A DNA stretch of 32,000 nucleotides. It comes from Gemmata obscuriglobus. Lineage in GTDB: Bacteria; Planctomycetota; Planctomycetia; Gemmatales; Gemmataceae. The notes beneath the pieces were generated by a model, which worked only from the letters and a program-made list of their open reading frames with translations, ran no database searches and had not been told where the DNA came from. A program made the position numbers and the translations under genes. The stretch is taken from contig NZ_CP042911.1 of assembly GCF_008065095.1 (NCBI RefSeq), forward strand, positions 2,670,001-2,702,000. Direction: 5' to 3'. Below, piece by piece: positions 1-23,064 of this stretch; positions within the stretch are counted from its first letter, which is position 1, and each line of letters begins with the position of its first letter.

Positions 1-66
1 CCCGCCGGAGTCGCGGGGGAAGAAGTCCGACAAGTGACGCGGTGGCGGGGTGGGTCGCAAAGGCAC

Positions 67-157
67 GCCGAACCCGGCGCTGCACCTGACACCGCCATCG
101 GATCTGCGTTATGATGCTCACTCGATCCTGGCGGTGCAGGTGAGCTATTCGTTCGGC
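67..157 (+). repeat. attC-like site 1 (91 bp)
   Basis: GCCGAAC-ccggc-GCT-g-CACCTG-a-CACCGCC-[33-nt loop]-GGCGGTG-CAGGTG-AGC-tattc-GTTCGGC. The outer 7-mers are exact reverse complements. The inner 7+6+3 bp stem has two single-base bulges on the 5' arm. GGAGG lies at 162-166 and ATG at 175. Confidence 0.7.
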
Positions 158-174
158 CACAGGAGGGCTCGGGG

Positions 175-639
175 ATGTCGTGGTTCCCGGACATGGGAAC
201 GGCTTGCATGATCGCCCACGGGGATCACGTCCGTGCGGTCGGCTGGCTGTCCGACCAGCACCCGTTCCCGACGGGCGACACACCGCCCGAGTTCCTGGCG
301 CGGCTGAAGGAGTTCTGCCGGCGGTGGGACGAAGGGTTGGGGCCGCTGGTCTGGGATGTCTTCATGGGACCGCACCGCTGCGAGTTGTGCGGCCGGTGCG
401 TGGCCAGTGGCAACATCGGGGTGCCGGCAGGGGGTGTGCTGTTCGCCGCCCCGGAGATGATCGCCCACTACGTCGAGGTTCACAAGTACGCCCCGCCGGC
501 CGAGTTCGTAGCGGCCGTGCTGTCGGCGCCGCTGCCCGGCACCAGGGAGTACGCGGTGGCGGTGGCGGCGTTCCGAGCCGTCGCGCTCCAGCAACAACTC
601 GGCGAGCTGTATCGGCCGGGTCAGCCACCGCGAGCGTAG
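175..639 (+). CDS. Cassette 1: hypothetical protein, 154 aa
   Basis: ATG lies 8 nt after GGAGG. The ORF fills the space between attC-like sites 1 and 2. It contains a HRCELCGRC Cys cluster. I recognise no family. Confidence 0.6.
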   Translation: MSWFPDMGTACMIAHGDHVRAVGWLSDQHPFPTGDTPPEFLARLKEFCRRWDEGLGPLVWDVFMGPHRCELCGRCVASGNIGVPAGGVLFAAPEMIAHYVEVHKYAPPAEFVAAVLSAPLPGTREYAVAVAAFRAVALQQQLGELYRPGQPPRA

Positions 640-648
640 CAAAGGCCG

Positions 649-741
649 GCCGAACCGGGCGCGGCACCTGACACCGCCGGCTGATATGCGACGTGCCGAT
701 CGTCCGTGGTGGCGGTGCCGGTGAGCTATTGTTCGTTCGGC
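649..741 (+). repeat. attC-like site 2 (93 bp)
   Basis: GCCGAAC-cgggc-GCG-g-CACCTG-a-CACCGCC-[loop ggctgatatgcgacgtgccgatcgtccgtggt]-GGCGGTG-CCGGTG-AGC-tattgttc-GTTCGGC. It starts 9 nt after the stop at 639. The next ATG is at 761. Confidence 0.7.
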
Positions 742-760
742 AACCAATGGGGGGGGCACC

Positions 761-1903
761 ATGCGACACGGCCTACTTGCTCTGGCGCTTCTGTTCGCCC
801 CGGTCGCGGCACGCGCGGACGAGAGCGAAGACGCTGCGGTCAAGGCTGTGGAAAAGGTCTATGGGAAAGTGCTTCGTGACGCCAACCAGGTCATCACAGG
901 TGTCGATCTCTCTGCGGGAGCTGCCCAAGGGCACCGGGTGACGGACGAGGAGCTGAAGGAATTGCTGCCCCTCAAGAGCCTGACCTCCATCGACCTTTCC
1001 CACACGGGCGTGACAAACGCGGGACTGAAGGTGCTCGTAGCCTTCAAAAGCCTCACGACCTTATCTTTGCACGACACCGGGATCACGGACGCCGGTTTGA
1101 AGGAGCTGGCACCGCTCAAGAACCTCACCGCCTTCAACCTGTCCAACACGAAGGTAACGGACACCGGTCTGAAGGAACTAACAGCAATCAGGAATCTCAC
1201 CGCTCTTCACTTGCGAAAGACAGAGATCACGGACGCCGGCCTGAAGTCACTGCCACCCATGAAAGATCTCACCACCCTTGACCTGTCCGACACGAAGGTT
1301 ACGGACGCCGGTCTGAAGGCGCTGGCACCGCTCGAGCGGTTGACGAACCTCTACCTGTACAACACGGAGGTCACGGACACCGGATTGAAGGAACTGGCTC
1401 CGTCGAAGAACCTCGCCGTCCTGCTCCTGTACAACACGAAGGTCACAGACGCGGGGCTGAAGGAACTGGCTCCATTAAAGAGTCTCTCAGTCCTCGTCTT
1501 GGGCGAAACGGAGGTTACGGATGCGGGATTGAAGGAGCTGGCTCCACTCAAGAACCTCACGGCTCTCAACCTGTACGGCACGAAGGTTACGGACGCGGGG
1601 GTAAAGGAACTCGCGCCATTTCAGAACCTCACCCTACTCGACCTGAGCGGCACGAATGTTACAGACGCGGGAATTAAGGAACTGGCGCGATTCAAGAACC
1701 TCGCCCACCTCGAGCTGTCCTCCACAGCGGTAACGGATGTCGGCTTGAAGGAGCTGGCATCACTCAAGAAGCTCACCAAACTATTCCTGATTAGTACGAA
1801 GACCACATTCGCCGGAATTAAAGAGTTCCAAAAAGCCGCGCCCAAATGCGATGTCTGGAACACCCTGAGTCTTAAAGGCCAGCCCGCGCTTGGGAAGTGG
1901 TAA
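761..1903 (+). CDS. Cassette 2: secreted leucine-rich-repeat protein, 380 aa
   Basis: N-terminal signal-like MRHGLLALALLFAPVAARA. Twelve consecutive 24-aa units fit xLKELAPLKNLTxLxLxxTxVTDA. G+C is visibly lower (one line counted at 50%). Confidence 0.85.
   Translation: MRHGLLALALLFAPVAARADESEDAAVKAVEKVYGKVLRDANQVITGVDLSAGAAQGHRVTDEELKELLPLKSLTSIDLSHTGVTNAGLKVLVAFKSLTTLSLHDTGITDAGLKELAPLKNLTAFNLSNTKVTDTGLKELTAIRNLTALHLRKTEITDAGLKSLPPMKDLTTLDLSDTKVTDAGLKALAPLERLTNLYLYNTEVTDTGLKELAPSKNLAVLLLYNTKVTDAGLKELAPLKSLSVLVLGETEVTDAGLKELAPLKNLTALNLYGTKVTDAGVKELAPFQNLTLLDLSGTNVTDAGIKELARFKNLAHLELSSTAVTDVGLKELASLKKLTKLFLISTKTTFAGIKEFQKAAPKCDVWNTLSLKGQPALGKW
950..1813 (+). repeat. 12 x 72-bp tandem coding repeats (LRR units) inside the LRR gene
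   Basis: Periodicity read from the translation: residues 64-351, 12 units of 24 aa. Confidence 0.8.
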
Positions 1904-1908
1904 TGGCC

Positions 1909-2200
1909 CTACTGGCGGCACAGGTTATATCGGCGTGCGAAGTACCATAAGGCGCCCAAGTGGTTCCTGGGGCACTTGGAGAAGGTGAGTGTCTTCCGCA
2001 CGAATCGGGCACACCGTTGCCGCAGTGTGAGCCAGAATCGCTCGATGTGGGCGGTGAGGCCAGTGACCTTGCGCACGGCTCGATGCCGGGCGCGGGGAAT
2101 GGCGGCCCGGCACGCGGGCAGCAAGTCGGTGTACACGGTGACCCCGGCCCGGTACCCCCGAGGTAACGCCCCCAAGAGCCGCCAGGCGATCGGAGCCGTT
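1909..2200 (-). pseudogene. IS1-family transposase C-terminal remnant
   Basis: The minus-strand translation ...VYTDLLPACRAAIPRARHRAVRKVTGLTAHIERFWLTLRQRCARFVRKTLTFSKCPRNH... follows the IS1 InsB C-terminal pattern (TD..Y....H...K...T..IER.NL.LRQ..AR..RK.L.FSK). The N-terminal two-thirds of a transposase and any inverted repeats are absent. The upper boundary is approximate. Confidence 0.6.
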
Positions 2201-2263
2201 TCGGTCACCATCGGCCTCGTCGTGGGTGTGGTCGGATGGCTCAGCCCCTCCATGGCGCCGGTT

Positions 2264-2354
2264 GCCGAACCCGGCGTGGCACCGGACACCGCCGGCTGAT
2301 ATGCGACGCGCCGCTCATCCGGTGATGGCGATGCAGGTGAGCTGCTAGTTCGGC
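2264..2354 (+). repeat. attC-like site 3 (91 bp)
   Basis: GCCGAAC-ccggc-GTG-g-CACCGG-a-CACCGCC-[loop ggctgatatgcgacgcgccgctcatccggtgat, nearly identical to the site 2 loop]-GGCGATG-CAGGTG-AGC-tgcta-GTTCGGC. AGGAG lies at 2360-2364 and ATG at 2374. Confidence 0.7.
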
Positions 2355-2373
2355 GACGTAGGAGAAGGCACCG

Positions 2374-2712
2374 ATGGGGCGCTCGCTGGCGTCACGGGTT
2401 AAGATCATCGGTCCGGCGTTTGGGGTGGGTGCGGCGTTGTCCGCCCTGGCCGCCGCCAGCGGCGCGAGCAAGATGGGCTGGGGGCTCGGCGACTTCGCCT
2501 TCGTGTGGGGGTCGGTCCTGGCTGGGCCATTTTCGGGACTCTGGTTCGCGACGGGGTGGGGGATGGCCGACGCGGTGGGGTGGGCCATCCCTTGCGGGTT
2601 GGCTATCGTCTGTCACCCGGCGCGGCCGGGCGGGCTTACCGGGCTGGTCAGTGGGATCGGAATTGCCTTGTGGATACTGCTTGGGTTCGCGCTCACCTAC
2701 GACGGGGTGTAA
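2374..2712 (+). CDS. Cassette 3: small Gly/Ala/Trp-rich integral membrane protein, 112 aa
   Basis: AGGAG lies 9 nt upstream. There are 3-4 hydrophobic segments. The ORF exactly fills the interval between attC-like sites 3 and 4. Confidence 0.55.
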   Translation: MGRSLASRVKIIGPAFGVGAALSALAAASGASKMGWGLGDFAFVWGSVLAGPFSGLWFATGWGMADAVGWAIPCGLAIVCHPARPGGLTGLVSGIGIALWILLGFALTYDGV

Positions 2713-2719
2713 CCCAAAC

Positions 2720-2831
2720 GCCGAACCGGTCGCTGCACCTGACCCGGTCACGTAATTCGTTTCTCGCTGCTCACCGCACTTCGGTATAGCCGGTTGTGAT
2801 CCCGGCCGGGCCGGTGAGCTTTAAGTTCGGC
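2720..2831 (+). repeat. attC-like site 4 (112 bp, longer loop)
   Basis: GCCGAAC-cggtc-GCT-g-CACCTG-a-CCCGGT...GCCGGG-CCGGTG-AGC-tttaa-GTTCGGC. The innermost stem differs from sites 1-3 on both arms but still pairs (compensatory change). It starts 7 nt after the stop at 2712. GGAGG lies at 2845-2849 and GTG at 2857. Confidence 0.65.
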
Positions 2832-2856
2832 GGCTGAAGGTGAAGGAGGGGCGCAC

Positions 2857-3354
2857 GTGGCCGAGCCGACGCAGATCAACCTGTCGCGGGCGTTGAAGCT
2901 CAAGAACCGCGTCGTCCACCGGCTGTCGCAGTTCGACACCCAGATCGCGACGTACAACAGCGTGATCGAAGACAACCAAGAGTACGATGTGCGTCAGCTT
3001 TACAAAGCCCGGATGGCGCTGGCCGAGCAGTTGGTCAAGCTGAAGGTGGCCATCAACGCCGCCAACCAGCCGATCCAGGGTCTGATCTTTGAACTGGCCG
3101 AGTGCAAGGCGCTCGTCGCCATGCTCGGTAAGGTGAACACCCGGCACGGGCCGTCGGTCGAGGGATTCACGGGCGCGAGGACGAACTACGTGGCCCAATT
3201 CCGCAAGCCGGACATCGACGCGGAAGTCCGGCGGGTGGAGAGGGAGATCGACCGTCTCCAGGACGAACTGGACCGGTTCAACCACCGCACACTGATCGCC
3301 GTCGAGGCGTCCCTGCTGGCGGACTCCGATCCGCCACCGGACGCGATCCGGTGA
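2857..3354 (+). CDS. Cassette 4: helical/coiled-coil protein, 165 aa, possibly DIP1984-family-like
   Basis: GTG lies 7 nt after GGAGG. The layout recalls DIP1984-type proteins from memory: ALKLKNRV...L start, central INAAN, C-terminal ID.LQDELD.FNH.T. The family assignment is tentative. Confidence 0.6.
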   Translation: MAEPTQINLSRALKLKNRVVHRLSQFDTQIATYNSVIEDNQEYDVRQLYKARMALAEQLVKLKVAINAANQPIQGLIFELAECKALVAMLGKVNTRHGPSVEGFTGARTNYVAQFRKPDIDAEVRRVEREIDRLQDELDRFNHRTLIAVEASLLADSDPPPDAIR

Positions 3355-3632
3355 TCCACCGGCCAGGCACGGCGTTCGTCGGACGAAGGCCGGGGCAGGC
3401 ATCGAGGTTGGGCCGCCCGCGCGGGCGGCCGTCGGCGGGCAACCGCCGGCCACGTGGCAACCTCACAATCGTAACGTGCCCGATCCGGACGCGGATACCG
3501 ATCTCAAGCCGCAAGGTTCCCGCTCCGACTGGTGACGAGCGATTCGATGATTGAGCCTGTAGCCCGCAACCCTCATTCCCGTCTGTCTCGACCGGAGTTC
3601 GGGTGCGCCGTGTCCTGGACACACAAAGGCAG

Positions 3633-3722
3633 GCCGAACTCGGCGCGGCACCCGACACCGCCGCTGATCCGGGGCCTGCCGCTCATCGTGTGATGGCGGT
3701 GCAGGCGAGCGGCAAGTTCGGC
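3633..3722 (+). repeat. attC-like site 5 (90 bp)
   Basis: GCCGAAC-tcggc-GCG-g-CACCCG-a-CACCGCC-[loop gctgatccggggcctgccgctcatcgtgtgat]-GGCGGTG-CAGGCG-AGC-ggcaa-GTTCGGC. GGAGG lies at 3726-3730 and GTG at 3740. Confidence 0.7.
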
Positions 3723-3739
3723 GAGGGAGGCGGGACGCA

Positions 3740-4207
3740 GTGGGCCACGAGGTGTACATCCACCGAGCCGACACGTGGGCCGAGAGCGATCGTTACCCGA
3801 TCACTCCGGACGAGTGGCTAGCGGTCATCGCGTCCGACCCGGAGTTGCGACCCGACCCCGACCACGAGTTCCAAGCCCTGTGGCCCGGCCCGTGCAAGTA
3901 TCCGGACGGGACGTGGTTCGCCTGGAGTGAGGGGGCGGTTTACACCAAGGGCCCGGACCGGCCGACGGTCGCCAAGATGTTGCAAATGGCCCGCCGGCTT
4001 GGGGCGCGGGTGCAGAGCGGGCACGGGGAGTTCTTCAACCGGCCCGAGGACATGCCCAGCGAGGAGGAGGCCGCGGCGTGGCAGGCCCGCAACTCCTCGG
4101 CCCCCCTGAGCCGGTGGGCACTCTTGGGGTGCGTGGTGGCGGGGGGAGCCCTGCTGTTCGTGTTCGGGGTCGGGGTCGTGACGATTTGCCGCTGGGTGTG
4201 GAGTTGA
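3740..4207 (+). CDS. Cassette 5: hypothetical protein with a C-terminal transmembrane anchor, 155 aa
   Basis: GTG lies 9 nt after GGAGG. The C-terminal segment WALLGCVVAGGALLFVFGVGVVTICRWVW is hydrophobic. The stop is 3 nt before attC-like site 6. Confidence 0.6.
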   Translation: MGHEVYIHRADTWAESDRYPITPDEWLAVIASDPELRPDPDHEFQALWPGPCKYPDGTWFAWSEGAVYTKGPDRPTVAKMLQMARRLGARVQSGHGEFFNRPEDMPSEEEAAAWQARNSSAPLSRWALLGCVVAGGALLFVFGVGVVTICRWVWS

Positions 4208-4210
4208 CCC

Positions 4211-4322
4211 GCCGAACCGGACACTGCCCCCGACCGCCGGCTCATCGGCGCTTTGCAGCATTACCTGTTTTAGGGTCGGTGATTGGCGCACCGGCGGCAG
4301 GCGGTCTCTTTGCCCGTTCGGC
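4211..4322 (+). repeat. attC-like site 6 (112 bp, most diverged)
   Basis: GCCGAAC-cggac-ACT-g-CCCCCG-a-CCGCCGG-[long loop]-CCGGCGG-CAGGCGG-TCT-ctttgccc-GTTCGGC. The inner 7-bp stem again differs in sequence but pairs perfectly. It starts 3 nt after the stop at 4207. Confidence 0.6.
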
Positions 4323-4331
4323 AACACGAGG

Positions 4332-5024
4332 GTGCGGCGATTGCGTACCGTGTACTTCGTCACGCGGCGTCCGAACAGCGAATTCGTGGGCGCATGGACG
4401 CTCGGCGAGATTCGAGCGCGGCTCGCGTCGGGCGAGCTCCGGGCGGCACTATTCGCCACCGAATCCGATGGGCGCAGCTTCAGCCGGTTCCAACGATCCG
4501 GGGCTCAGGCCCGCTGGCGAACATTGGCAGAACTGCTTGAGGAGCCCCCGTCGCCGGTTCATCCCGAAACCGCTCGGCCGCCCGGCCCCGGCCGGTGGCT
4601 GTCCTCGTACTTCATCGGTGGCGGGGCGTCCTGGCTGCTGTTGGTGGTCGGGCAGTTCGTGGCGGCGCTGGCGTGTATCGCCGTCCCGATCGGCGTGGTG
4701 TACCAACTTGGGCAGTTGTCCGAGGCCGAGCAGGTGATCGAGCGCGCTGGCCGGGCCGGCGACACTCGGGTCGGCCAAGCGGCAGCGGGCATTTCGGTCG
4801 CTCGCGGCGCGGTTGTCGTGGCCGGCGTGCTGGCCTTCTGTGTCAACGCGGCGCTGCTCATCGTGTTCAAGCGAGCCAACACGCTCGCGCAGATCGCCGC
4901 GGATCAAGACGCCGATAACGAACAGGTGTGGCACGCGATCGCGGACTTGCGGTCGCGGGTGACGCCTGCCCCGAGCGGCCGACAAGACGCCGAGCCCGGC
5001 GCTGCACCGGGCACCGCCGACTAA
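4332..5024 (+). CDS. Cassette 6: membrane protein, 230 aa, with a possible GYF_2-like N-terminal domain
   Basis: N-terminus VYFVTRRPNSEFVGAWTLGEIRARLASGEL, followed by two long hydrophobic segments. The start is uncertain. TTG at 4341 (8 nt after GAGGG, 18 nt after the R' box) fits the pattern of the other cassettes better than GTG at 4332. Confidence 0.55.
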   Translation: MRRLRTVYFVTRRPNSEFVGAWTLGEIRARLASGELRAALFATESDGRSFSRFQRSGAQARWRTLAELLEEPPSPVHPETARPPGPGRWLSSYFIGGGASWLLLVVGQFVAALACIAVPIGVVYQLGQLSEAEQVIERAGRAGDTRVGQAAAGISVARGAVVVAGVLAFCVNAALLIVFKRANTLAQIAADQDADNEQVWHAIADLRSRVTPAPSGRQDAEPGAAPGTAD

Positions 5025-5078
5025 TTCGGGACGCAGCGCTCGTCCGGTGGTGGCGGTGCCAGTGGGCTATCGTTCGGC
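4989..5078 (+). repeat. attC-like site 7 (90 bp); overlaps the 3' end of the preceding ORF
   Basis: GCCGAGC-ccggc-GCT-g-CACCGG-g-CACCGCC-[loop gactaattcgggacgcagcgctcgtccggtggt]-GGCGGTG-CCAGTG-GGC-tatc-GTTCGGC. The variant first box still pairs through a G.T wobble. The TAA stop of ORF 4332..5024 lies in the loop. Confidence 0.65.
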
Positions 5079-5226
5079 AGTGTGGCGAGCCCCGCGGAGG
5101 GGCGACGCGGCAGACGGGTGACCGCGTCGCTGGTGCGGAATGGGTGTCGCACTCCGACGTGGCCCGGGGCGCGCGAGACCGGCCGCCGTTTTACCGTTTG
5201 CACTTCCAGCGACCGGAGGAGATCCC

Positions 5227-6141
5227 ATGCGGCGCGGGTTTACCCTGATCGAGATCGTCGTCGTGATCGCCATCCTCGCGGTCCTCATTGCGCTCCTCCT
5301 GCCGGCCGTGCAGAAGGTCCGGGCCGCCGCCATCCGGACCAGGAGCGCGAACAACATCCGGCAGATCAACCTCGCACTGCACAACTACGCGGGCGACCGC
5401 CGGGTGCTGCCGACGATCGATGGCAACCCGCGGCCGGTCTACATCGAATCGCTCGGCGTCTGGGGGAGGCAGTCCGACCCGCTGGTCTTCATGGCGCTGC
5501 TGCCGCACATCGAGTCCTCCGGCTATCGGCAGGACCAGGCGTACCCGAGCGTGCCGATGTACCGCAGCCCGGCCGACCCGTCGGCCGCCCTCTACCCACC
5601 GGACGGGCCGGCGGCCCTGTTCCACCACACGTCGTACGCGGCCAACGCGCAGGTGTTCGTCGGTCGCACGTCGCTCGACCGCGTCGCCCCGGACGGCCTG
5701 TCCCAGACCATGTTCTTCGCGGAACACTACCTGGCCTGCGCCAAAAGCTCGTTCACGTACAGCTCCGCCGATCCCGATAGGCACCTCATCCGGCGGGCGA
5801 CGTTCGCAGACGGCGGCCCGGTCCTGGCGGGGGTCAACCCCGGTGACGTGTATCCCGTCACCTCCGGCACACCCGCCGTGACCCGGCCGAGCCGGGACGG
5901 CGTGACGTTCCAGGTTCGGCCCCGACTCTGGGCCTCTGAGAAGCCGTTGAGCGCAAGCCCGCCTCCGCCGCCCGGCGCCGGGGACTGCGACCCATCCCTC
6001 CCGCAGACGCCGCACGAGGGCGGGATGCTCGTCGGGTTGGGCGACGGGAGCGTCCGCACCGTCGGCCGATCGGCCAGCGTGGAGACCTTCTGGGCGGCGG
6101 TGACTCCGGCCGGCGGCGAGGTCATCGGCAGCGACTGGTGA
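5227..6141 (+). CDS. Cassette 7: DUF1559-type protein with a prepilin-type N-terminal cleavage/methylation domain
   Basis: [35 protein letters not shown] is the type IV pilin-like leader and helix typical of the planctomycete DUF1559 family. The C-terminus carries [12 protein letters not shown] (H-X9-DG-like). GGAGGAG lies 5 nt upstream of the ATG. Confidence 0.85.
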
Positions 6142-6178
6142 GCGGGCCGAACGTCCGGGCGGGCCGCTGCACAGGCAC

Positions 6179-6256
6179 GTCGAACCCGGCACCGCACCCG
6201 CCTGGGCCGCATCGCTCGTCCGGTGATGCCGGTGCAGGTGAGTTTGATTGTTCGGC
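6179..6256 (+). repeat. attC-like site 8 (variant subfamily), preceded by an extra GCCGAAC box at 6146-6152
   Basis: GTCGAAC-ccggcaccgcacccgcctgggccgcatcgctcgtccggtgatgccggtgcaggtgagtttgatt-GTTCGGC. The 3' half (GGTGCAGGTGAG...GTTCGGC) matches the other sites. The 5' half recurs at 6997-7034. Confidence 0.55.
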
Positions 6257-6348
6257 CGCCGCTGACGAATCTCCGGTGCGAACCTCAAAACGTTGTTGCG
6301 GGTCATTAGATCTTGCTCTGGTTACCTGCGACTCCCCGAGGCTCGCCG

Positions 6349-6981
6349 ATGTCTGAACCTTCGCCGATCCCCCCCGTTGTCCTAGTAGAGTTAAAGAACG
6401 TCCGGGACCAAGTCTGGGACGTCTTCGGGCATTGGAACCTTTTCACCGGCCTGTTCGCGGATCAAGACACGGTGAAGATCCTTGCCTGGGCGTTCAACCG
6501 CGGTGCCGGTGGCTTGATCCACCAAGCGGTGCGTACCGAGATCGCTGTCGGTCTTGGCAGGTTGTTGGACCCTGCAGTTGATCGGGTCAAGAAGCAGCCG
6601 AGGCACAACCTGACTGTAGAGCGGATGGTCAGCCACGTTGAGACGCTGCGGCCAGAGCAAGCAGACGGCATGCGGGTTGAGCTCGCAGAGGCTCGCAACC
6701 ACTTCGAACCTCTGCGGCGGTGGCGCGACAAGTATCACGCGCATCGTGATCATGCGGTGGCAATGGGGCTCGAACCGATCGCTCAGGTCGATCGTGAAGC
6801 GGTCAACACTGTGCTCGCAGTTCTCGGCAAGCTGATGAACCGAGTGTGCGAGGCTCTGGATAGCCCAATAACAGACTATCGGCCTGCGTACAAAGGGGCC
6901 GCAGACCAGTTGCTTGCATTTGTGCGCCCGATGTATCAGGCCAGCCGTGAGCGGTTGAGGATTGCTGAGGCAGGCTTGTAG
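6349..6981 (+). CDS. Cassette 8: hypothetical protein, 210 aa, with an Rx4-6H (HEPN-like, AbiU2-type?) motif
   Basis: ATG lies 7 nt after GAGG. RDKYHAH at 6724-6744 fits R-[DN]-K-x-x-A-H. About 57-58% G+C on two counted lines, against about 68-70% in the flanks. Confidence 0.6.
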   Translation: MSEPSPIPPVVLVELKNVRDQVWDVFGHWNLFTGLFADQDTVKILAWAFNRGAGGLIHQAVRTEIAVGLGRLLDPAVDRVKKQPRHNLTVERMVSHVETLRPEQADGMRVELAEARNHFEPLRRWRDKYHAHRDHAVAMGLEPIAQVDREAVNTVLAVLGKLMNRVCEALDSPITDYRPAYKGAADQLLAFVRPMYQASRERLRIAEAGL

Positions 6982-6996
6982 CCGAGTTGCTCGTAG

Positions 6997-7034
6997 GTCG
7001 AACCCGGCACCGCACCGGCCTGGGCCGCATCGCT
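6997..7034 (+). repeat. Truncated attC-like half-site (5' half only); probable distal end of the array
   Basis: GTCGAACCCGGCACCGCACCgGCCTGGGCCGCATCGCTt matches 6179-6216 with 2 mismatches in 38 nt. No matching 3' arm or GTTCGGC follows. An odd GCCGAAC-aggg-GTTCGAT lies at 7062-7079. Confidence 0.55.
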
Positions 7035-7286
7035 TTTCGTCGCCGCCTCTCACGCACCCACGCCGAACAGGGGTTCGATCCCTTCGGACCGGGTCCCGTG
7101 GATCACCGCTTGCGAGAACATCGCGTCGATGCTGTCGAGGAACCGCAGGCGGTGACCGCCCCGGACTCGTCGCACAGTTGAACCGGTTGGCCCAGCCCGC
7201 TCAGTTTGCCCCGCATCGCGGCGTCGAGAATCACCTTGCTCGCGTGTCGCCTCCTGACCGCACGATGCCACCCGCGGTCAACAGAA

Positions 7287-7306
7287 CGGGGGGCCGAACC
7301 CCCCCG
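7287..7306 (-). terminator. GC hairpin downstream of the isomerase-like gene
   Basis: CGGGGGG-ccgaa-CCCCCCG lies 13 nt beyond the stop (7319) of the minus-strand gene. The trailing T-run is weak (ttctgtt). Confidence 0.4.
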
Positions 7307-7318
7307 TCGCGAACCACG

Positions 7319-8512
7319 TTACGCCTTCAGCGCGTCGTCGTGGCGGCCCCAGCTCGGCGGCAGGTCGGCCTTCCGGCAGTTCGCCAGCGCCGTCTTCGCG
7401 CCGGCGAACTTGTCCGCGTCGTTGTCCTCCCACTCGATGCTCACCGCGCCCTCGTACCCGACCCGGTTCAGCTCGATGAAGATCTCCTCCAGCGAGTTGG
7501 CGTCGCGCTGTGTGCCGGCGGTCACGAACTTCCAACCGTTGGTCCAGTGGCCCATCGACCGGTGCCCGCCCAGCAGCCCGCCGCGGCAGTGCTCGCGCTC
7601 CACCTGCACGCCCTTCACGTGCGCGCAGTGGACGTACTTCTGGAACTCGCGGATGAACTGGATCACCGACACGTTCTGCCATTCCATGTGCGAGCCGTCG
7701 AGGTTGAACCCCACGACGCCCTCGTACCCAGCCTTGTTCATGTGGTTGATGTAATCCACGGCGCTCTCGAGGTCGCCCATCGCGCGCTCGGACGGGTGGC
7801 ACTCCAGGTCGTAGGTCACGCCCTGCTTCTTGCACTCGTCCCACACCGGGCCGAACCGCTCCACCAGCAGTTCCAGCGACACCTGGTACACGTCCGGCAG
7901 GGCGTGGCCGTCGATCTCGCCGGGGAGCCACGGGAACAGGAACCAGTGGCTCCAGCAGTGGGCGGGGCTGCCCACGAAGCCGGGCACCGCGACGCGGCGG
8001 TTCTGCAACTTGGACAGGTGCCCGGCGTACCGCACCGCGGCCAGCAGGTCGCGCTGCGCCTCCTTGTGCATCAGCGCGCCGACCTCGTCGGGCACGTACA
8101 TCGGGTTGGTGCGCGGCGGGTTGTTGCCGGCGGCACGCCACGCCTTGTACGCGCCCCGAGCCTCGCCCTTCCCGGAGCAGAAGTTGAGGGTCTTGGCGCT
8201 CGGCTCGTCGCCCAGCACCTGCCCCTGGAGGTGCGTGGCGACGGTGAAGATCTCCAGCCCGTGCGCCTTCGCCAGCGCGACCCGCTCCTTGGCGTACTCG
8301 GCGGCGCCGGCGTCGGTGTCGCACCGGCGCAGGTCGAGTTCCCAGGACGCCTCTTCCCAGCCGTCGAAGCCGGCCCCGGCGATGAATTTGAGCCACTCCG
8401 ACTCGGGCACCCCGCCGAACTGGCCGCGGACGAGCCCGATCTGGTGGTAGCTGCCCTTGCCGGGCCGGTGAACCGGCTTGCCGCTCTCGTCAACGGTCTG
8501 CGCGAATCCCAT
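7319..8512 (-). CDS. Sugar phosphate isomerase/epimerase (xylose isomerase-like TIM barrel), 397 aa
   Basis: The long ORF has coding-like composition. Its length and motifs (...AGFDGWE..., ...HLQGQVLGDEP..., ...VHCAHVKG..., ...GAVSIEWED...) resemble the AP-endonuclease-2/xylose-isomerase-like fold family common in planctomycetes. Confidence 0.75.
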   Translation of the reverse strand: MGFAQTVDESGKPVHRPGKGSYHQIGLVRGQFGGVPESEWLKFIAGAGFDGWEEASWELDLRRCDTDAGAAEYAKERVALAKAHGLEIFTVATHLQGQVLGDEPSAKTLNFCSGKGEARGAYKAWRAAGNNPPRTNPMYVPDEVGALMHKEAQRDLLAAVRYAGHLSKLQNRRVAVPGFVGSPAHCWSHWFLFPWLPGEIDGHALPDVYQVSLELLVERFGPVWDECKKQGVTYDLECHPSERAMGDLESAVDYINHMNKAGYEGVVGFNLDGSHMEWQNVSVIQFIREFQKYVHCAHVKGVQVEREHCRGGLLGGHRSMGHWTNGWKFVTAGTQRDANSLEEIFIELNRVGYEGAVSIEWEDNDADKFAGAKTALANCRKADLPPSWGRHDDALKA

Positions 8513-8680: not shown

Positions 8681-9757
8681 ATGACCGACCGCGAAGCGTT
8701 CATCGAAGCCATTGCCGCCCGCCGGGACGACGGCACCGTGCGGCTGGCGTTCGCCGACTGGCTCCAGGAGCACGGCGAGGAAGACCGCGCTGAGTTCGTG
8801 CGACTGTCGCACGAACTCGCCGCGTGTTCCCACGAGGCGGAACTCCGGCAGCTCCGAAAACAGGTTCTCAACCTGCTGGAGACCCACGGCCCGCGGTGGT
8901 TCGACCCGTTCTGTCGCGCGCTCGGTCAGGAATCCGTTTTCGGCCGCCGCGGGCGGCGCTCGGCTCAGGCCTATTGGACGGGCCGACTACGCCTCGACAA
9001 TCCGTCTTACCAACGCGATTTCGATTCGGGCCAAATCGACCTGAATGAACTGTCGGCCGGCGTGTTCTCGGGCATCAAACTGCGGCACGGCTTTGTGCAG
9101 CAGGCGACCGTCCTTCTCGCATCCGAGTACCCTGTTGGTGACGTGGCAGGTGCGTTACGATGCGAGCCGGTCGAGGAGTTGACCATCCGAACGGCCACCG
9201 CCCCGGACCAGTGGCGCCGCTTGAACGTACCGTCCCTGGCCCGCATCCAAAAGCTCGCCGTCGAAGCGCCGCCCGAACCTACCCCCCAAGCAATTGAAGT
9301 GTTCGACGAAGTGCTCGCGGGAGAGCACTGGTCAGGAGTGCATGACTTCCACCTCGAGTGCTCAGACGCCGATCTTGAACTCCAGGGCGGATACGCAGCC
9401 CGGCTGCTACGGGCGCCACTACTGTCAGGCCTCAAAACGCTCTGGCTCCGTGACACGCAACACGACCTGATACCCCTGGTATGTTCGCCACGGTTGACGT
9501 CACTCCGCTGCTTCACCGCCCTGGGCTGTGAACCTGCTGACGCGGTTTTTCGTGCTCTTCGTGATGCGTCGTTCCGGCCGAACGTGGACATGATTATACT
9601 TGCACTCACGTGCCACAGATTTGACGAGAGTGTCGAGGCGCTCGCCTCGGCTCCGTGGCCGAAGCTACGTATTCTTATGCTTGAGGGGGTGACCGACGCC
9701 AGCGTCCGTCATCTGCTACCTCTCGTTCCTCAACTCACTTACCTAGGACTTACGTAG
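8681..9757 (+). pseudogene. TIGR02996-type N-terminal domain / LRR protein, 5' part, interrupted by an IS at 9743/9744
   Basis: MTDREAFIEAIAARRDDGTVRLAFADWLQEHGEEDRAEFVRL is the TIGR02996 signature as I recall it. The frame runs into the IS inverted repeat and stops at TAG 9755-9757 (last 4 codons are IS-derived). Confidence 0.8.
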
Positions 9758-10811
9758 TTGACTTTTGGGTAAGTAGGTATGTAGGTGCGGCGAGGTAGGT
9801 TCGCACCGCTTCGCGCACGATGGCCGTCTTGGCCGCGAACCAACTGACGCCGGACTTGAGCCGGTGCCACTCGAGCCGCAGGAACGCGCGGATCGCGAGC
9901 CCGATGTGGACCGCTTGGGCCCGGCTCATGCGCACCTGGCACCGGTCCACGTGGCAATGCTGCTTGAGGCCCCGGTGATACTCCTCGATGCCCCACGCGT
10001 GCCCGGCCAGAACCGCACGAGTGGCCTCGTCCATGTCGAGGTCGTTGGTGATCCAATGCTCCGTGCCCCCATCACCGGTGGCGATCCGGAACGCCTTCAC
10101 CAATCCGAACCCCTCCAGGTGCACCACCGTACCGGCGGCCCCGATCGGGCACCCCTCGATGGCCCGATTGCCCGTGCGATCCGGGTTCACCCGCCGGTTG
10201 CTCCGCACCCGGGTCAGGAAGTGCCACCCCAGGGCCCGCACCGCCTTCAGGTTGTCCTTGCCCGAGTACCAGGTGTCGAACAGTACCACCCGGGGCGACA
10301 GGTCCCGTCCCTTGGCGACCGCCAGCATGGCTCGGAAGTGGTCGTTCTTGGTCTCGGCTCGGGCCGGGTCGGCGAGCCGGTAATCACACGGTACCAGGGC
10401 GGCCCCGTCGGTCCACAGCAGGGTCACCAGCCCGATCCCGCTCACCACCCGGCGGTGCCGCCCGGACCAGCACCGGCGCACCAGCCCCATGTGCCGGGCG
10501 AACGGCTTGTCCAGCACCGAGTCGTCGAGCACCACGGCACCGCCCGGGCGGACCGACGACCGGGCTTCGTCCCACAACGCCGCTGGGTCCGGTTCCAGCC
10601 GGTGCAGCAGTCGGGTGAACGCATCATGCGCGGGCGCCGTCGGATGGTCCGGTTGGGCTCGCGCGGCTTCCGCGGCCGACGCCACCTTGGGGGTGGCGAT
10701 CAGGAATTGGATGTAGTCCTCGGCGCTCGCACGTGGTGCGTTCATGGCCCGATCATAGACCAACAACACACCATGCGCAAATCCTGCGCCAGCGCAACTG
10801 CGTAAGTCCTA
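9744..10811 (-). mobile_element. IS701/IS4-like insertion sequence, 1068 bp
   Basis: Terminal inverted repeats TAGGACTTACG[T/C]AGTTG at 9744-9760 and 10795-10811 (16/17). Direct 5-bp duplication TTACC at 9739-9743 and 10812-10816. A single DDE transposase ORF lies inside. Confidence 0.85.
9750..10769 (-). CDS. DDE transposase (IS701/IS4-like), 339 aa
   Basis: ...EDYIQFLIATPKVASAAEAARAQP....APAHDAFTRLLHRLEPD..., ...VVLDDSVLDKP..., ...VLFDTWYS..., ...WGIEEYHRGLKQ... is the typical DDE layout. An alternative ATG start is at 10745. Confidence 0.85.
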   Translation of the reverse strand: MLLVYDRAMNAPRASAEDYIQFLIATPKVASAAEAARAQPDHPTAPAHDAFTRLLHRLEPDPAALWDEARSSVRPGGAVVLDDSVLDKPFARHMGLVRRCWSGRHRRVVSGIGLVTLLWTDGAALVPCDYRLADPARAETKNDHFRAMLAVAKGRDLSPRVVLFDTWYSGKDNLKAVRALGWHFLTRVRSNRRVNPDRTGNRAIEGCPIGAAGTVVHLEGFGLVKAFRIATGDGGTEHWITNDLDMDEATRAVLAGHAWGIEEYHRGLKQHCHVDRCQVRMSRAQAVHIGLAIRAFLRLEWHRLKSGVSWFAAKTAIVREAVRTYLAAPTYLLTQKSTT

Positions 10812-19417: not shown

Positions 19418-19665
19418 CGCGCACCTCCGTGACTCGCATTCACACGAGCATACCCGGTGCGCGTTGACGCCGACAGCCCGACCCGCGTACCCTCTCCTCA
19501 ACCCCGGAGGTTCCGCCATGCCATACCCCCGCGCGATCGCACCGCTCCTCGTGCTGCTCTCCGCGTCAACCGCGTGGGCCGACACGATCACCCTCGTCGC
19601 CGGCGGCGGTAACGGACCCGACGGCGCGGAAGCGACCACCGCCAAGCTGCTCCAACCGTTCGGCG
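19305..19665. repeat. Direct repeat copy A (361 bp): antiporter 5' end, divergent intergenic region and NHL gene 5' end
   Basis: Aligns without gaps to 23746..24106 (offset 4441). I counted 12 mismatches. Confidence 0.9.
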
Positions 19666-19694
19666 GTGCGAGGTGTGGGCGGAAGCGTATTTGA
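19518..19694 (+). pseudogene. Truncated 5' stub of the NHL-repeat gene (49 homologous codons, then unrelated tail)
   Basis: MPYPRAIAPLLVLLSASTAWADTITLVAGGGNGPDGAEATTAKLLQPFG matches the N-terminus of 23959..25035. Homology ends at 19665. Confidence 0.75.
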
Positions 19695-19784
19695 CGGCAG
19701 GTGCGGAGATCTGTGGGGCGGCGGGTACGTGGATGTGTTGAGCTTTTCAGACGTGATTCTTGCTCGCTTCAATGTGTTGTGGCA

Positions 19785-19827
19785 GGAGCCCGGCAAGATC
19801 ACAACTCTTGCCGGGCTCCGATTTTTC
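19785..19827 (+). terminator. Rho-independent terminator-like hairpin (+ strand)
   Basis: GGAGCCCGGCAAG-atcacaact-CTTGCCGGGCTCC (13-bp perfect stem) followed by GATTTTTC. Confidence 0.5.
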
Positions 19828-19861
19828 ACAACACGTCGAGCGAAAGGCTCGACTCAAGCCA

Positions 19862-19898
19862 ATAAAACGAAAAACTCGGTAGGGTAATTGCCCTACCG
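19862..19898 (-). terminator. Rho-independent terminator-like hairpin for the minus-strand operon
   Basis: CGGTAGGG-taattg-CCCTACCG at 19877-19898. On the minus strand it is followed by AGTTTTTCGTTTTAT. It lies 38 nt beyond the stop of 19936..20637. Confidence 0.5.
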
Positions 19899-19935
19899 GG
19901 ACAGTGTAATTAGCCACTGTGGTTAATGGGCGCAA

Positions 19936-20637
19936 TCACGGCCGAACCAAACGCGGCATCGGCGCTTTGGGCGGAATGATTACAATCGTCATAGACTCAC
20001 TCGGATACGGGCTGTCGTACAGGAGGCCATCTCTGTCAAGGAAGCTGGGCATGTACTCCCGGGGGTAGGGAGTCCTTTTTTCCTCCCACGCTTGGTGAGC
20101 ATTCATCCGACCGTGGTGCTCACCCTTGTCCAACGCTTTCTCTCCAGGCGGAGGGGGGACAACCCCGCCAGGCCGCCGAAGAATACGAATGGTTCTGCAT
20201 GTGTCAACGCCATCCTTGCGATCGTAGTGGATGTAAACCCTGTCGCCAACTTTAACATCAGTAATGCGGTAGGTGTCAGCAGACCAAGTCTTGGCATACC
20301 CACCCTTGGCCAGCTCGCTAGCGAGTGCGAATGTCTTGGCCGGAACCTCTGGATAGTGCTTCTCCTTTAACGACAACTGGGCACCCGTCCTGGGGTTAAA
20401 CTCCTCGATGAGCACCCGGCGCTCAGGCCAATACAATGTAATCCCTTGGGCGTCTGCCTTCTGGACAAATCCAGAAGTATGACGGCCTGAGTAATTCCAC
20501 GTGAACGGAACAGAAGGATCAGGCGGAGGTCCCGAGTCCCAGGGGTCTTCCACCTGCGGCCTCGCTTGTTTTTGCCCCCCCGGAACCTGTACCGGGAGGG
20601 CAAAAAACATAATCGCAACAGTTAATCCCGTCAGCAT
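19936..20637 (-). CDS. Hypothetical secreted/anchored protein, 233 aa (low G+C)
   Basis: N-terminal hydrophobic MLTGLTVAIMFFALPV. It lies 33 nt downstream of the beta-helix gene on the same strand. One line counted at 47% G+C. No family recognised. Confidence 0.6.
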   Translation of the reverse strand: MLTGLTVAIMFFALPVQVPGGQKQARPQVEDPWDSGPPPDPSVPFTWNYSGRHTSGFVQKADAQGITLYWPERRVLIEEFNPRTGAQLSLKEKHYPEVPAKTFALASELAKGGYAKTWSADTYRITDVKVGDRVYIHYDRKDGVDTCRTIRILRRPGGVVPPPPGEKALDKGEHHGRMNAHQAWEEKRTPYPREYMPSFLDRDGLLYDSPYPSESMTIVIIPPKAPMPRLVRP

Positions 20638-20670
20638 ACGAGTTACTCCAGATCGCGCATCACTCCCAGC

Positions 20671-21746
20671 TTAGGCAGGCACAAGATCGTAAACTTCTGT
20701 ACCGTCCATTACAAGCGTGCTGCCTTGGAGCTTCAAGCCAGGCCCCCCCGGAGGCAAAGCCAGTGTGATATCGATGTCCTCATTCGCCACCACAGGCTTG
20801 AAGCCCCCTCCAGCTTCCAGAACGCGGGCAGTAAAGGTCACTCCCAGTGGCAACGTGTTCCAGTTTGGGATGTATATGCTAATAGTGACGTTTCCCCCAA
20901 TGTAGAACTTCTCATCGGCCCTTATCTTGTCTGCTACCTGATTGCCAACATTTAGCCCGCATAGAAATGTCCCGCCAATCCAATACAAATCCTTGGTGAC
21001 TTTCAAGGTGCCATATCCACCCAGCATCTTAACAGTCCCGCCAGCAATGGTTAGCTGAGCATCCACCTTCCCCGTGGATGAATTGGCTCCTACCACATCG
21101 ACAACTAGATTGCCGCCGTTCACCTTCATCGAGCCATACTTGCTCTTGAGAGTGCCATTGGCACCGCTAATCGTAATCGTACCACTGTTCTGTACGATAT
21201 CGATCTTTTTCGGAGCTGTAGGGTTCGCAGGAGCGAGGTTCGCACCAAAGCTGGCAAACGCACCATCCTCTATATTCAAGTTTCCGCCGTTATTCAGAAA
21301 CGTGCGATTCTTGGCATCGAACTGAACATTAGTGCCAATAGTGATCGTCCCATTGGTCTTCAGTTCAACTTTCGCCTTGCCGTCATCGTAGCTGCCAGCA
21401 GGACCCGACCATACAATGCCGCCCATGGGGACGGCGCTGATAGTCATGGTGGCGTTATCGACCGTCACCGGGCTGCCGTGCGAAAAATTCAGTGACGCAT
21501 CCGAGGCAAGAGTGGCGCCGTTGTTCACGACCAACGCGCTACCCAAGGTAAGCGTCCCGGCGCTGCTGATCGTGCCGACCGCCCCATTCAGGTAGACGGT
21601 TGATTCCGTGCTCGCACTGTTCAGCGTACCCCCGGTCCAGGTGAAGGTGTCGGTGACGGTGAGGTCGGTGCCGGAGGTGGGCTGTGAGATGGCTCCACTA
21701 GCCATCAGAAACTCTTTGGTCGCAATCGGGCCGCCGAACGTGACCG
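20671..21746 (-). pseudogene. 3' part of an IS-disrupted beta-helix-like secreted protein gene
   Basis: Gly/Asn/Thr-rich degenerate repeats (GGTLN.., NGATL.., GGNLN.., SGTITISGANGTL.., GGNLVVD.., AGGTVKM..) suggest a parallel beta-helix. The frame joins 23065 across the IS. Confidence 0.7.
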
Positions 21747-21756
21747 TGTTCGTGTA

Positions 21757-23064
21757 CAGGGCAAACGCACTCAATCCTCGGGATTTTTCAGTAGTACCTG
21801 TTCGAGGTAGGTATTATCCCATCCGGCCTTGAGTCGCCGGTTCTTGATCCCACATTTGGCGTTTGCCTTCTTCAACATCGCCAAGGCGATCTTGCGCACG
21901 AGGGCCATATTCTGCGGGCCGTGCCCTTCACGGAGTCGGTGGTCGTCTTCTCGGAACGCGACATCCAGCACCCAATGGCATGAATTCTCGATGCACCAAT
22001 GAGCCCGGATCCACGTTTGGAACCGCTTGGCCGATGCCTTCCGCGAGCTGATGTAATACCGCACCTCGTCGCTCGTCCTACCGGCGACCGTGCGGCTGCT
22101 GACGAGCACCACGACGGACCGCAACCGGGGCCACACATTCCGGTCCCGGATCGACTCCAGGTCGTCGATCACGAAGCAGAACCGCATCTCCTCGCGCCCG
22201 TGGCCCGTTCCTTCGTTGAGGTCGGTCGAGCGGCCCGCGTAGCTCGCCTCTAGGGCCCCCTCGGCCAACCGCTGGATGTCCTCGAGCAGCCGCGGCTGGT
22301 TGTCCTTGACCGCCAGCAGGTAGTCCCCCTTGGCGGCCACGATCTGCTGGGCGATGTCCTTCTGGGTGCCCATCGCGTCGATGCTCACCAGGGCCCCCGC
22401 GAGGTCCAGCCGCTCCAGCAGTTCCGGGATCGCGGTGATCTCGTTGGACTTCTCGTCGGTCTTCACCTGGGCCAACGTGAGGCCCAACTGCTGAGCCCAT
22501 GCGCTGACGATGTGTGTGGCCTTGCGAGCCCCCGTGCCGGTGACCCGCTTGGACCCCCGCATGGTCTTCCCGTCGATCGGGATGTGGGGCACCCGGAGGC
22601 CCTCGGCGGCGTCCGCGACCCACGCCCGGAAGCACCGCCCGAACGCCTCCGGGCGGACCAGCGCGAACACCCGGTTGAGGGTGTCGTGGGACGGAATCCC
22701 GTTGCGCAGCGTCAGCCCCAGCCGGTCCCGGAACCAGGACTCCTTGGCCCGCGCGAACTCGGCGATCGACACGAAGTCATCGGCCCCGACGATCGTCCCA
22801 CAGGTCACGATCATGAGTACATCAATCAAGTCGTGGAAGCACTTCAACTCGACCCGCGGATCCGGGATCTGGGACAGGTACTCGATTAACGGGCGTGGGC
22901 CGGGGGCGGCACTCATCGGCAGACTCCGAGGCGGTGAGGGCGCGCCAGAATCATATGGAGGCGGGGCCGCACATGCGCAGGAGGCGAGCGATGGCCGCTC
23001 GATCACACGCCTCAAAATTAGCTAGAATCCAGCGATTCCTAGGGGATTGAGTGCGTTTGCCCTG
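21757..23064 (-). mobile_element. ISAs1-family insertion sequence, 1308 bp
   Basis: Perfect 21-bp terminal inverted repeats: CAGGGCAAACGCACTCAATCC at 21757-21777 and its reverse complement at 23044-23064. A 10-bp direct duplication TGTTCGTGTA lies at 21747-21756 and 23065-23074. Confidence 0.9.
21771..22916 (-). CDS. ISAs1-family transposase, 381 aa
   Basis: MSAAPGPRPLIEYLSQIPDPRVELKCFHDLIDVLMIVTCGTIVGADDFVSIAEFA... is the characteristic ISAs1 (H-repeat-like) N-terminus. ATG lies 7 nt after GGAG. About 67% G+C, unlike the neighbouring low-G+C DNA. Confidence 0.9.
   Translation of the reverse strand: MSAAPGPRPLIEYLSQIPDPRVELKCFHDLIDVLMIVTCGTIVGADDFVSIAEFARAKESWFRDRLGLTLRNGIPSHDTLNRVFALVRPEAFGRCFRAWVADAAEGLRVPHIPIDGKTMRGSKRVTGTGARKATHIVSAWAQQLGLTLAQVKTDEKSNEITAIPELLERLDLAGALVSIDAMGTQKDIAQQIVAAKGDYLLAVKDNQPRLLEDIQRLAEGALEASYAGRSTDLNEGTGHGREEMRFCFVIDDLESIRDRNVWPRLRSVVVLVSSRTVAGRTSDEVRYYISSRKASAKRFQTWIRAHWCIENSCHWVLDVAFREDDHRLREGHGPQNMALVRKIALAMLKKANAKCGIKNRRLKAGWDNTYLEQVLLKNPED

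Follow-up and report, generated by a model that had tools for sequence, protein, structure and literature searches.

A co-oriented array of attC-like sites and gene cassettes at one end of a 32-kb stretch of the Gemmata obscuriglobus genome

Layout and contents of the array

The stretch of DNA analysed here (hereafter the window) comprises 32,000 nt of the Gemmata obscuriglobus genome (contig NZ_CP042911.1, positions 2,670,001 to 2,702,000) and opens with what is very probably part of an integron cassette array, in which eight forward open reading frames (ORFs), one per unit according to the ORF list and a Pfam scan, alternate with copies of a repeat resembling attC, the recombination site of integron cassettes. 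Reading of the sequence from 1 to 7400, together with a search for the core heptamer, located nine such elements of 78–112 nt, all on the plus strand and all between 67 and 7079. A first-pass annotation of this DNA had described one element per intergenic gap, always oriented like the ORFs, and this description was borne out, with no site in the other 25 kb. The elements begin with GCCGAAC or the variants GCCGAGC and GTCGAAC, and end with GTTCGGC in eight sites and with GTTCGAT in the final site (r9); the combination GCCGAAC...GTTCGGC occurs in seven of the nine. The same annotation had counted eight complete copies and one half copy: the total of nine stands, but the supposed half copy, r9, retains an R'-like box (GTTCGAT, 7073–7079).

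A 30-nt consensus of the 5' end, with up to three mismatches allowed, matched eight sites against 0.01 expected by chance, and had no match past 7079 in the 32-kb window. The exact pattern GCCGAAC-N40-70-GTTCGGC returned zero matches in the window because the sites exceed the gap that it permits. Trained on 101 family members of ~90 nt (alignment A2, see below), a covariance model recovered seven plus-strand sites at 45–95 bits (E 1e-8 to 2.5e-20), whereas reverse-strand scores did not exceed 30 bits, and scanning 7080–32000 with the same model yielded nothing comparable to the array sites. The degenerate r9 and the absence of further sites downstream place the end of the array at ~7079. In the other direction the array continues upstream past window position 1. 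Logan contigs matching the window (100% identical) start inside r1, at position 120, indicating that short-read assemblies evidently break at the repeat. The sites are as follows.

67–157, + strand: attC r1, 91 nt; covariance model 95.2 bits; closes partial cassette 1; the window start cuts off the end of its ORF
649–741, + strand: attC r2, 93 nt; 81 bits
2264–2354, + strand: attC r3, 91 nt; 87.4 bits
2720–2831, + strand: attC r4, 112-nt length class; 54.2 bits
3633–3722, + strand: attC r5, 90 nt; 74.9 bits
4211–4322, + strand: attC r6, 112 nt, diverged; R''/R' pair perfect, L box degenerate; 17.6 bits, E 0.036
4989–5078, + strand: attC r7, 90 nt; R'' is GCCGAGC; 78.9 bits
6146–6256, + strand: attC r8, composite, with an outer R''-like GCCGAAC at 6146 and an inner 78-nt site starting from GTCGAAC at 6179; 45.1 bits for 6179–6256
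6997–7079, + strand: attC r9, terminal and degenerate, L' side lost; 15.3 bits

In the diverged r6 the R stem is present in the minimum free energy (MFE) fold. The extra part of r8 consists of the R''-like GCCGAAC plus 26 nt, and its inner site is devoid of the 5' arm of the third stem (alignment A1). The first 38 nt of r9 correspond to 6179–6216 of this inner site with a single mismatch, so that r8 and r9 are a local subtype or a duplication; this subtype was absent from all other genomes fetched.

The spacing between sites and genes is tight. Checked against the ORF list, the gaps from stop codon to element that the first-pass annotation had put at 3–9 nt are 9, 7, 3 and 4 nt, five ORF starts (175, 761, 2374, 2857 and 3740) lie 17–25 nt past the end of the preceding site, as it had also noted, and its range of 477–1613 bp for the unit sizes is correct. 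A lone sigma-70-like match was found in the 7.4 kb, with no excess over shuffled sequence, although such a scan constitutes weak evidence in a planctomycete. The cassettes carry the following genes.

175–639, + strand: cassette 2 (152–735), DUF7919 protein of 154 aa (PF25535, E 4.6e-28; WP_010034028.1; GobsT_22600)
761–1903, + strand: cassette 3 (736–2348), secreted leucine-rich-repeat (LRR) protein of 380 aa (Pfam LRR_6, LRR_4, LRR_8), G+C 57.5%
1909–2208, − strand: IS1-like transposase remnant in cassette 3 (DDE_Tnp_IS1, E 2e-5, scored on ORF 1909–2289; gene called on a Logan contig)
2374–2712, + strand: cassette 4 (2349–2825), membrane protein of 112 aa (UniRef name DUF1097; GobsT_22630)
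2857–3354, + strand: cassette 5 (2826–3716), 165 aa, no family, sub-threshold Pfam match only; G+C at third codon positions (GC3) 0.886
3740–4207, + strand: cassette 6 (3717–4316), 155 aa, no family; GC3 0.891
4332–5024, + strand: cassette 7 (4317–5072), 230 aa, no family; GC3 0.80
5227–6141, + strand: cassette 8 (5073–6250), DUF1559 protein with a type IV pilin-like N-methylation motif (PF07596, E 1e-15; PF07963); alternative start 5140
6349–6981, + strand: cassette 9, HEPN_AbiU2-like protein (PF18734, E 1.4e-7, above the gathering score); alternative TTG start 6313

The contents of the ORFs are unrelated to each other, as the first-pass annotation had proposed: Pfam assigns DUF7919, LRR, DUF1559 with the N-methyl motif and HEPN_AbiU2, and leaves four ORFs without a significant family. 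Base composition varies from 60% to 71% G+C per cassette and from 57.5% to 70.8% per ORF, so that the earlier lower figure of about 50% was too low. PADLOC gave no hit on the cassette proteins, the HEPN_AbiU2-like protein included. Homologues of two of the products occur in other Gemmata loci: a protein 47% identical to the DUF7919 protein is encoded in a Gemmata algarum cassette (L018, 3749–4102), and LRR homologues with 34–53% identity per alignment are found in L122, L006, L101 and L040. The IS1-like remnant, downstream of the LRR gene, accounts for cassette 3 being the longest unit, at 1613 bp. The ORF of cassette 7 extends 36 nt into its own attC (r7), with the stop codon inside the site. 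In cassette 5, a 278-nt non-coding tail (3355–3632), holding no ORF longer than 70 aa, separates the stop codon from attC.

attC anatomy and covariation of the repeats

The outer boxes of the repeat, R'' (GCCGAAC) and R' (GTTCGGC), pair in a 7-bp stem that holds the conserved AAC/GTT. Between the R and L boxes lies a spacer with 5 unpaired nt on the 5' arm and 5–8 on the 3' arm (r1 fold and alignment A2), followed by an L stem of 3+6+7 bp that is interrupted by unpaired single bases at positions 16 and 23, with the 6-bp stem between them, on the arm that bears AAC in the top strand. On the top strand all copies have G at position 16 and at least 90% have A at position 23, corresponding to C and T on the bottom strand. 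In the published attC layout, likewise, two extrahelical bases, at 16 and 23/24 and separated by a 6-bp stem, protrude from the bottom-strand arm that faces AAC; the far one is a conserved bottom-strand T and the near one is usually G (PMC5027507). That layout also has an R box containing AAC/GTT and a central spacer without pairing, and its variable terminal structure measures ~20–100 nt (PMC4889954). The repeats fall into two length classes, ~90 and ~112 nt, and their central region is variable: the 90-nt class has 40 alignment columns without pairing, and the 112-nt class has ~20 nt extra. The R''/R' boxes depart from RYYYAAC/GTTRRRY at one position on each side, with complementarity kept.

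The bottom strand of r1 folds into the 7-bp R stem, an internal loop of 5+5 nt and an L stem in which two single bases bulge out (−28.4 kcal/mol, z = −6.2). Since single-sequence MFE folding proved uninformative for most sites, pairing was counted on an alignment (A2) of 101 distinct ~90-nt copies from Gemmataceae, five of them from the window. In this alignment 94.8% of cells pair, against 27–40% when the 3' partners are slid by 1–3 columns, and pairing of the R stem reaches 99.6% of cells over the 101 copies. Cells in which both partners have changed number 99, against 33 in shuffled alignments, none of the 500 shuffles reaching 99, and four pairs alternate between pair types, such as UA/GC and AU/CG. 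The repeats have the structure of attC sites, and their stems covary.

Searches for other classes of element in the window were negative: an Rfam scan gave 0 hits, Rfam holding no attC family, and a tRNA scan was empty. A CRISPR-like (clustered regularly interspaced short palindromic repeat) array was considered and rejected, because the "spacers" measure 400–1500 bp and contain whole genes.

Integrases, attI-like sites and cassette exchange in related genomes

To place the repeat in a wider context, we scanned 185,579 species genomes with a sequence pattern, obtaining at least 120 stretches. Among the matches listed, most multi-copy matches fall in Gemmataceae, the hosts being Gemmata algarum, Gemmata sp. 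SMAG_U3706, G. massiliana IIL30, Zavarzinella, Fimbriiglobus, Urbifossiella, Frigoriglobus and Limnoglobus; single matches in Streptomyces, also among those listed, were dismissed as one conserved stretch unlike the repeat. The covariance model gave 282 matches in 77 planctomycete-type loci (409 kb), a few of which are reverse-strand echoes, leaving ~275 sites. These are spaced 330–1100 bp apart, and all but two are co-oriented within their locus, which answers a check on the number and orientation of the repeats suggested in the first-pass annotation: they are clustered and co-oriented. In the fetched parts of two genomes, those of G. algarum and a Gemmata metagenome-assembled genome (MAG), one contains at least 80 copies and the other at least 103, and in G. 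algarum the repeat is present at several genomic regions.

A tblastn search of the fetched loci with an IntI1 sequence, used as a probe only, revealed integrase homologues with 48–55% identity to IntI1 in six loci (L009, L012, L049, L092, L110 and L121). The five integrase ORFs scored on NCBIfam pass the integron integrase profile TIGR02249 with 398–451 bits against a cutoff of 265; four of them cover the whole or nearly the whole of the 315-position profile, the IntI-specific insertion included, and the L009 ORF is without the N-terminus only. In all six loci intI lies upstream of the attC sites on the same strand. A conserved inverted repeat, TAGATTGCGCCGGCGCAATCTA, is located ~150–175 nt past the intI stop codon in each of the six and is followed, after a further 7–9 nt, by GTTCGGC in five loci and by GTTATGG in L012. 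The region of TAGATTGCGCCGGCGCAATCTA is a candidate attI, with a recombination core in common with the attC R' box. The Gemmataceae IntI are 64–72% identical to many IntI from soil and freshwater bacteria, such as Thiobacillus and Gallionella. The most repeated Logan match in the IntI search, P0004, was rejected as the IntI of G. obscuriglobus, as it derives from metagenome samples and not from the isolate in question.

Evidence of exchange at the level of single cassettes, another check proposed in the first-pass annotation, came from cassette 4. Window positions 2265–2831 match G. algarum contig_34 (L084) at 91%, and the cassette 4 protein is 95.5% identical to its G. algarum counterpart. 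Identity between the window and L084 is distributed along this region as follows.

Upstream flank: 36%
Upstream attC: 79% (family level)
Cassette 4 body: 95.4%
Cassette 4's own attC (r4): 85%
Downstream of GTTCGGC: 43%

The homology runs from the R' box of the attC upstream to that of the cassette's own attC, and the neighbouring cassettes are unrelated between the two species. On this comparison, in which one cassette (2349–2831) was tested, the cassettes appear to behave as discrete mobile units bounded between G and TT of the R' boxes.

Shorter attC sites of ~57–98 nt with the same R''-spacer-L'' sequence, GCCGAACCAGGCGCTGCACCTGAC, were observed in proteobacterial and other non-planctomycete contigs (L102, from an Alcaligenaceae MAG; L093, from Nitrincola; L056, L057, L076 and L111). 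Taken together with the likeness of the Gemmataceae IntI to those of soil and freshwater bacteria, their presence indicates that this type of attC and IntI is not confined to planctomycetes.

A separate observation concerns three different attC sites in Gemmata MAG loci (L122, 1–1650; L009, 1–190; L091, 600–800). All three break off at an identical point, following ...GGTGAGCTGNGT, and run on into the conserved sequence GACTATGAAGCCGYGT.... In L122 the interrupted site adjoins an IS110-family transposase gene (25–1146, + strand; Pfam DEDD_Tnp_IS110 and Transposase_20). The arrangement resembles that of the IS1111-attC group, insertion sequences that target attC.

The array as part of a chromosomal integron

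Elements of this genome have been catalogued previously. According to Table S3 of IntegronFinder 2.0 (PMC9024848), both complete genomes of G. obscuriglobus have five elements, which together contain 345 attC sites: one complete integron and four clusters of attC sites lacking integrases (CALINs), a CALIN being defined by at least two attC sites with no intI nearby, with default clustering within 4 kb in IntegronFinder. The entries are as follows.

CALIN: 39 attC, 27 proteins
CALIN: 47 attC, 15 proteins
CALIN: 133 attC, 83 proteins
CALIN: 48 attC, 36 proteins
Complete integron: 78 attC, 43 or 44 proteins

The same table reports one CALIN in G. massiliana, and one CALIN and one complete integron in Frigoriglobus tundricola; Gemmata and Frigoriglobus appear in this supplementary table only, and the main text makes no mention of Gemmata (PMC9024848). 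In all five G. obscuriglobus elements the attC count exceeds the protein count, on which the text of the paper does not comment (PMC9024848).

Positions 1–7079 of the window are very probably the distal end of the cassette array of a sedentary chromosomal integron, with eight complete cassettes and one cut by the window edge. This reading, already put forward in the first-pass annotation, follows from the attC anatomy of the repeats, the covariation of their stems, their specificity of strand and place, their association in six related loci with intI and an attI-like site, the recurrence of one cassette in G. algarum and the published detection by IntegronFinder 2.0. The array is either the tail of the complete integron of this genome or one of its four CALINs. 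By analogy with the well-studied integron system, the bottom strand of each attC would fold into a bulged hairpin, and an IntI encoded outside the window would bind pairs of hairpins and cut between A and C of 5'-AAC-3', equivalent to the junction between G and TT of GTTCGGC in the top strand. The cassette would be excised as a circle and re-inserted at attI beside intI, where its expression would be possible, leaving the distal cassettes as a largely silent store; recombination at this locus is accordingly a prediction of the analogy.

Several observations weigh against this reading. The 32-kb window is devoid of intI (by tblastn with IntI1 and by Pfam), of an attI motif and of a cassette promoter (Pc), and the presumed link to intI within the G. 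obscuriglobus genome comes from the published table. No G. obscuriglobus IntI is among the best 120 of 7986 matches to a Gemmata IntI query, so that the IntI of this species may be divergent or unannotated. On the bottom strand, C takes the place of the usual G as the near extrahelical base, and several single-site MFE folds are no better than those of shuffled sequences (z −0.3 to −2.4). Finally, the degenerate sites at 4211 and 6997 and the insertion sequence remnant indicate that some of the array may have lost the capacity to recombine.

An integron is not the only setting in which imperfect palindromes of ~90 nt might accumulate. Intergenic palindromes resembling repetitive extragenic palindromic (REP) sequences or miniature inverted-repeat transposable elements (MITEs), spreading by themselves or through a REP-associated transposase and having no tie to integrons, could account for the very high copy numbers in Gemmata and for the dispersal of copies over several regions of the G. 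algarum genome, with the arrangement of one ORF per gap then being incidental. Such elements would leave unexplained the long arrays with one gene-sized spacer each, in which orientation is broken at only 2 of ~275 sites, the position of the arrays beside integron integrases and an attI-like site that also has GTTCGGC, the invariant, strand-asymmetric, attC-like bulges at 16 and 23, the coincidence of the cassette 4 breakpoints with R' boxes and the complete lack of copies in the rest of the window; we consider this explanation largely refuted and extremely improbable. The close fit of the sites between the stop codon of one gene and the start codon of the next, together with the possibility of stable hairpins, would also suit terminators, attenuators or RNA-stability elements of a co-transcribed gene cluster. 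This too is most improbable, as no T-run follows any copy, terminator-like sites number 3 against 5.0 expected, with none at the repeat, the flanked genes are unrelated in function and G+C, relatives carry the element in association with intI and attI, and the swapping of cassettes between species would remain unexplained.

A variant of the integron reading is harder to set aside. The array could be a dead relic, a CALIN split off by rearrangement, its sites decaying and exchange having ceased, and we regard this as possible, though short of probable. Four of the five elements in the genome are CALINs, the window is without intI or attI, and two DDE transposase genes (9750–10769 and 21771–23015, both on the − strand) lie at most 16 kb past the array. 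The degenerate r9, the weak r6, the composite r8 and the transposase remnant in cassette 3 suggest some decay at the distal end. On the other hand, six of the nine sites score 54–95 bits with R, spacer and L features intact, the complete integron reported in the genome could act in trans, and the 95% identity of cassette 4 to its G. algarum counterpart points to fairly recent exchange or strong conservation.

Viewed as the end of a sedentary chromosomal integron, the array shares with the Vibrio cholerae superintegron and with CALINs a long run of cassettes in one orientation, most of them with a single gene, whose functions are unrelated and largely unknown, attC sites that are homogeneous within the array, with RYYYAAC...GTTRRRY-type repeats, extrahelical bases, a spacer without pairing and a terminal structure that varies, and an association of insertion sequences with fragmentation into integrase-less clusters (PMC4889954). 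It differs from them in its planctomycete host, in R''/R' boxes that are one position off the consensus on each side, in the C at the near extrahelical position, in the two site length classes (~90 and ~112 nt) and in the 345 attC sites spread over five loci. An intI gene co-oriented with the cassettes defines the inverted group of integrons (PMC4889954), and the six related loci resemble this Treponema denticola type in having intI transcribed towards the cassettes, from the strand that carries the attC top-strand sequence. They depart from it in the 64–72% identity of their IntI to soil and freshwater IntI, and the layout is known from these related loci, not from the array in the window. 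Integrons and intI have been reported since 2007–2008 from other members of the phylum (Rhodopirellula baltica, Blastopirellula marina and Kuenenia stuttgartiensis), in reports that do not name Gemmata, and a Planctomycetes-specific attC covariance model dates from 2021 (PMC8352920).

Past 7079 the genes are of an ordinary chromosomal kind, encoding a xylose-isomerase-like TIM barrel protein, a BNR sialidase-like protein, a beta-eliminating lyase, a Na/H exchanger and NHL-repeat proteins, and neither tblastn nor Pfam detected a tyrosine recombinase within these 25 kb. A dip in G+C to 0.53–0.58 was observed at ~19.5–22 kb, in a region (19500–23015) where two ORFs without a Pfam match (19936–20637 and 20671–21774, both on the − strand) adjoin the DDE transposase gene at 21771–23015; this region may be a recent insertion.

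The type of array described here is textbook and the elements of this genome are catalogued, so that the array is already known and adds little as a discovery. The first-pass annotation had expected a cassette array in this lineage to be poorly characterised, which does not hold in view of that catalogue, but does hold in that no discussion of Gemmata integrons was found in the literature searched. We would propose only tentatively, and consider on balance unlikely, that G. obscuriglobus carries one of the largest integron cassette stores among sequenced bacteria, outside the Proteobacteria, with a co-oriented IntI and a C-type subclass of attC; the cassette shared with G. algarum would then be a sign of ongoing exchange within the genus. 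If true, sedentary integrons of very large size would have another natural model in Gemmata, the second of its kind. Integron arrays store adaptive genes whose function is unknown, represented here by an AbiU2-like HEPN protein, an LRR protein, a DUF1559 protein and small membrane proteins, and the size of the Gemmata cassette store (345 sites) merits more attention than it has been given so far. The integron mechanism is known almost wholly from Proteobacteria, and a planctomycete that combines hundreds of cassettes with a co-oriented integrase would make a useful system for comparison.

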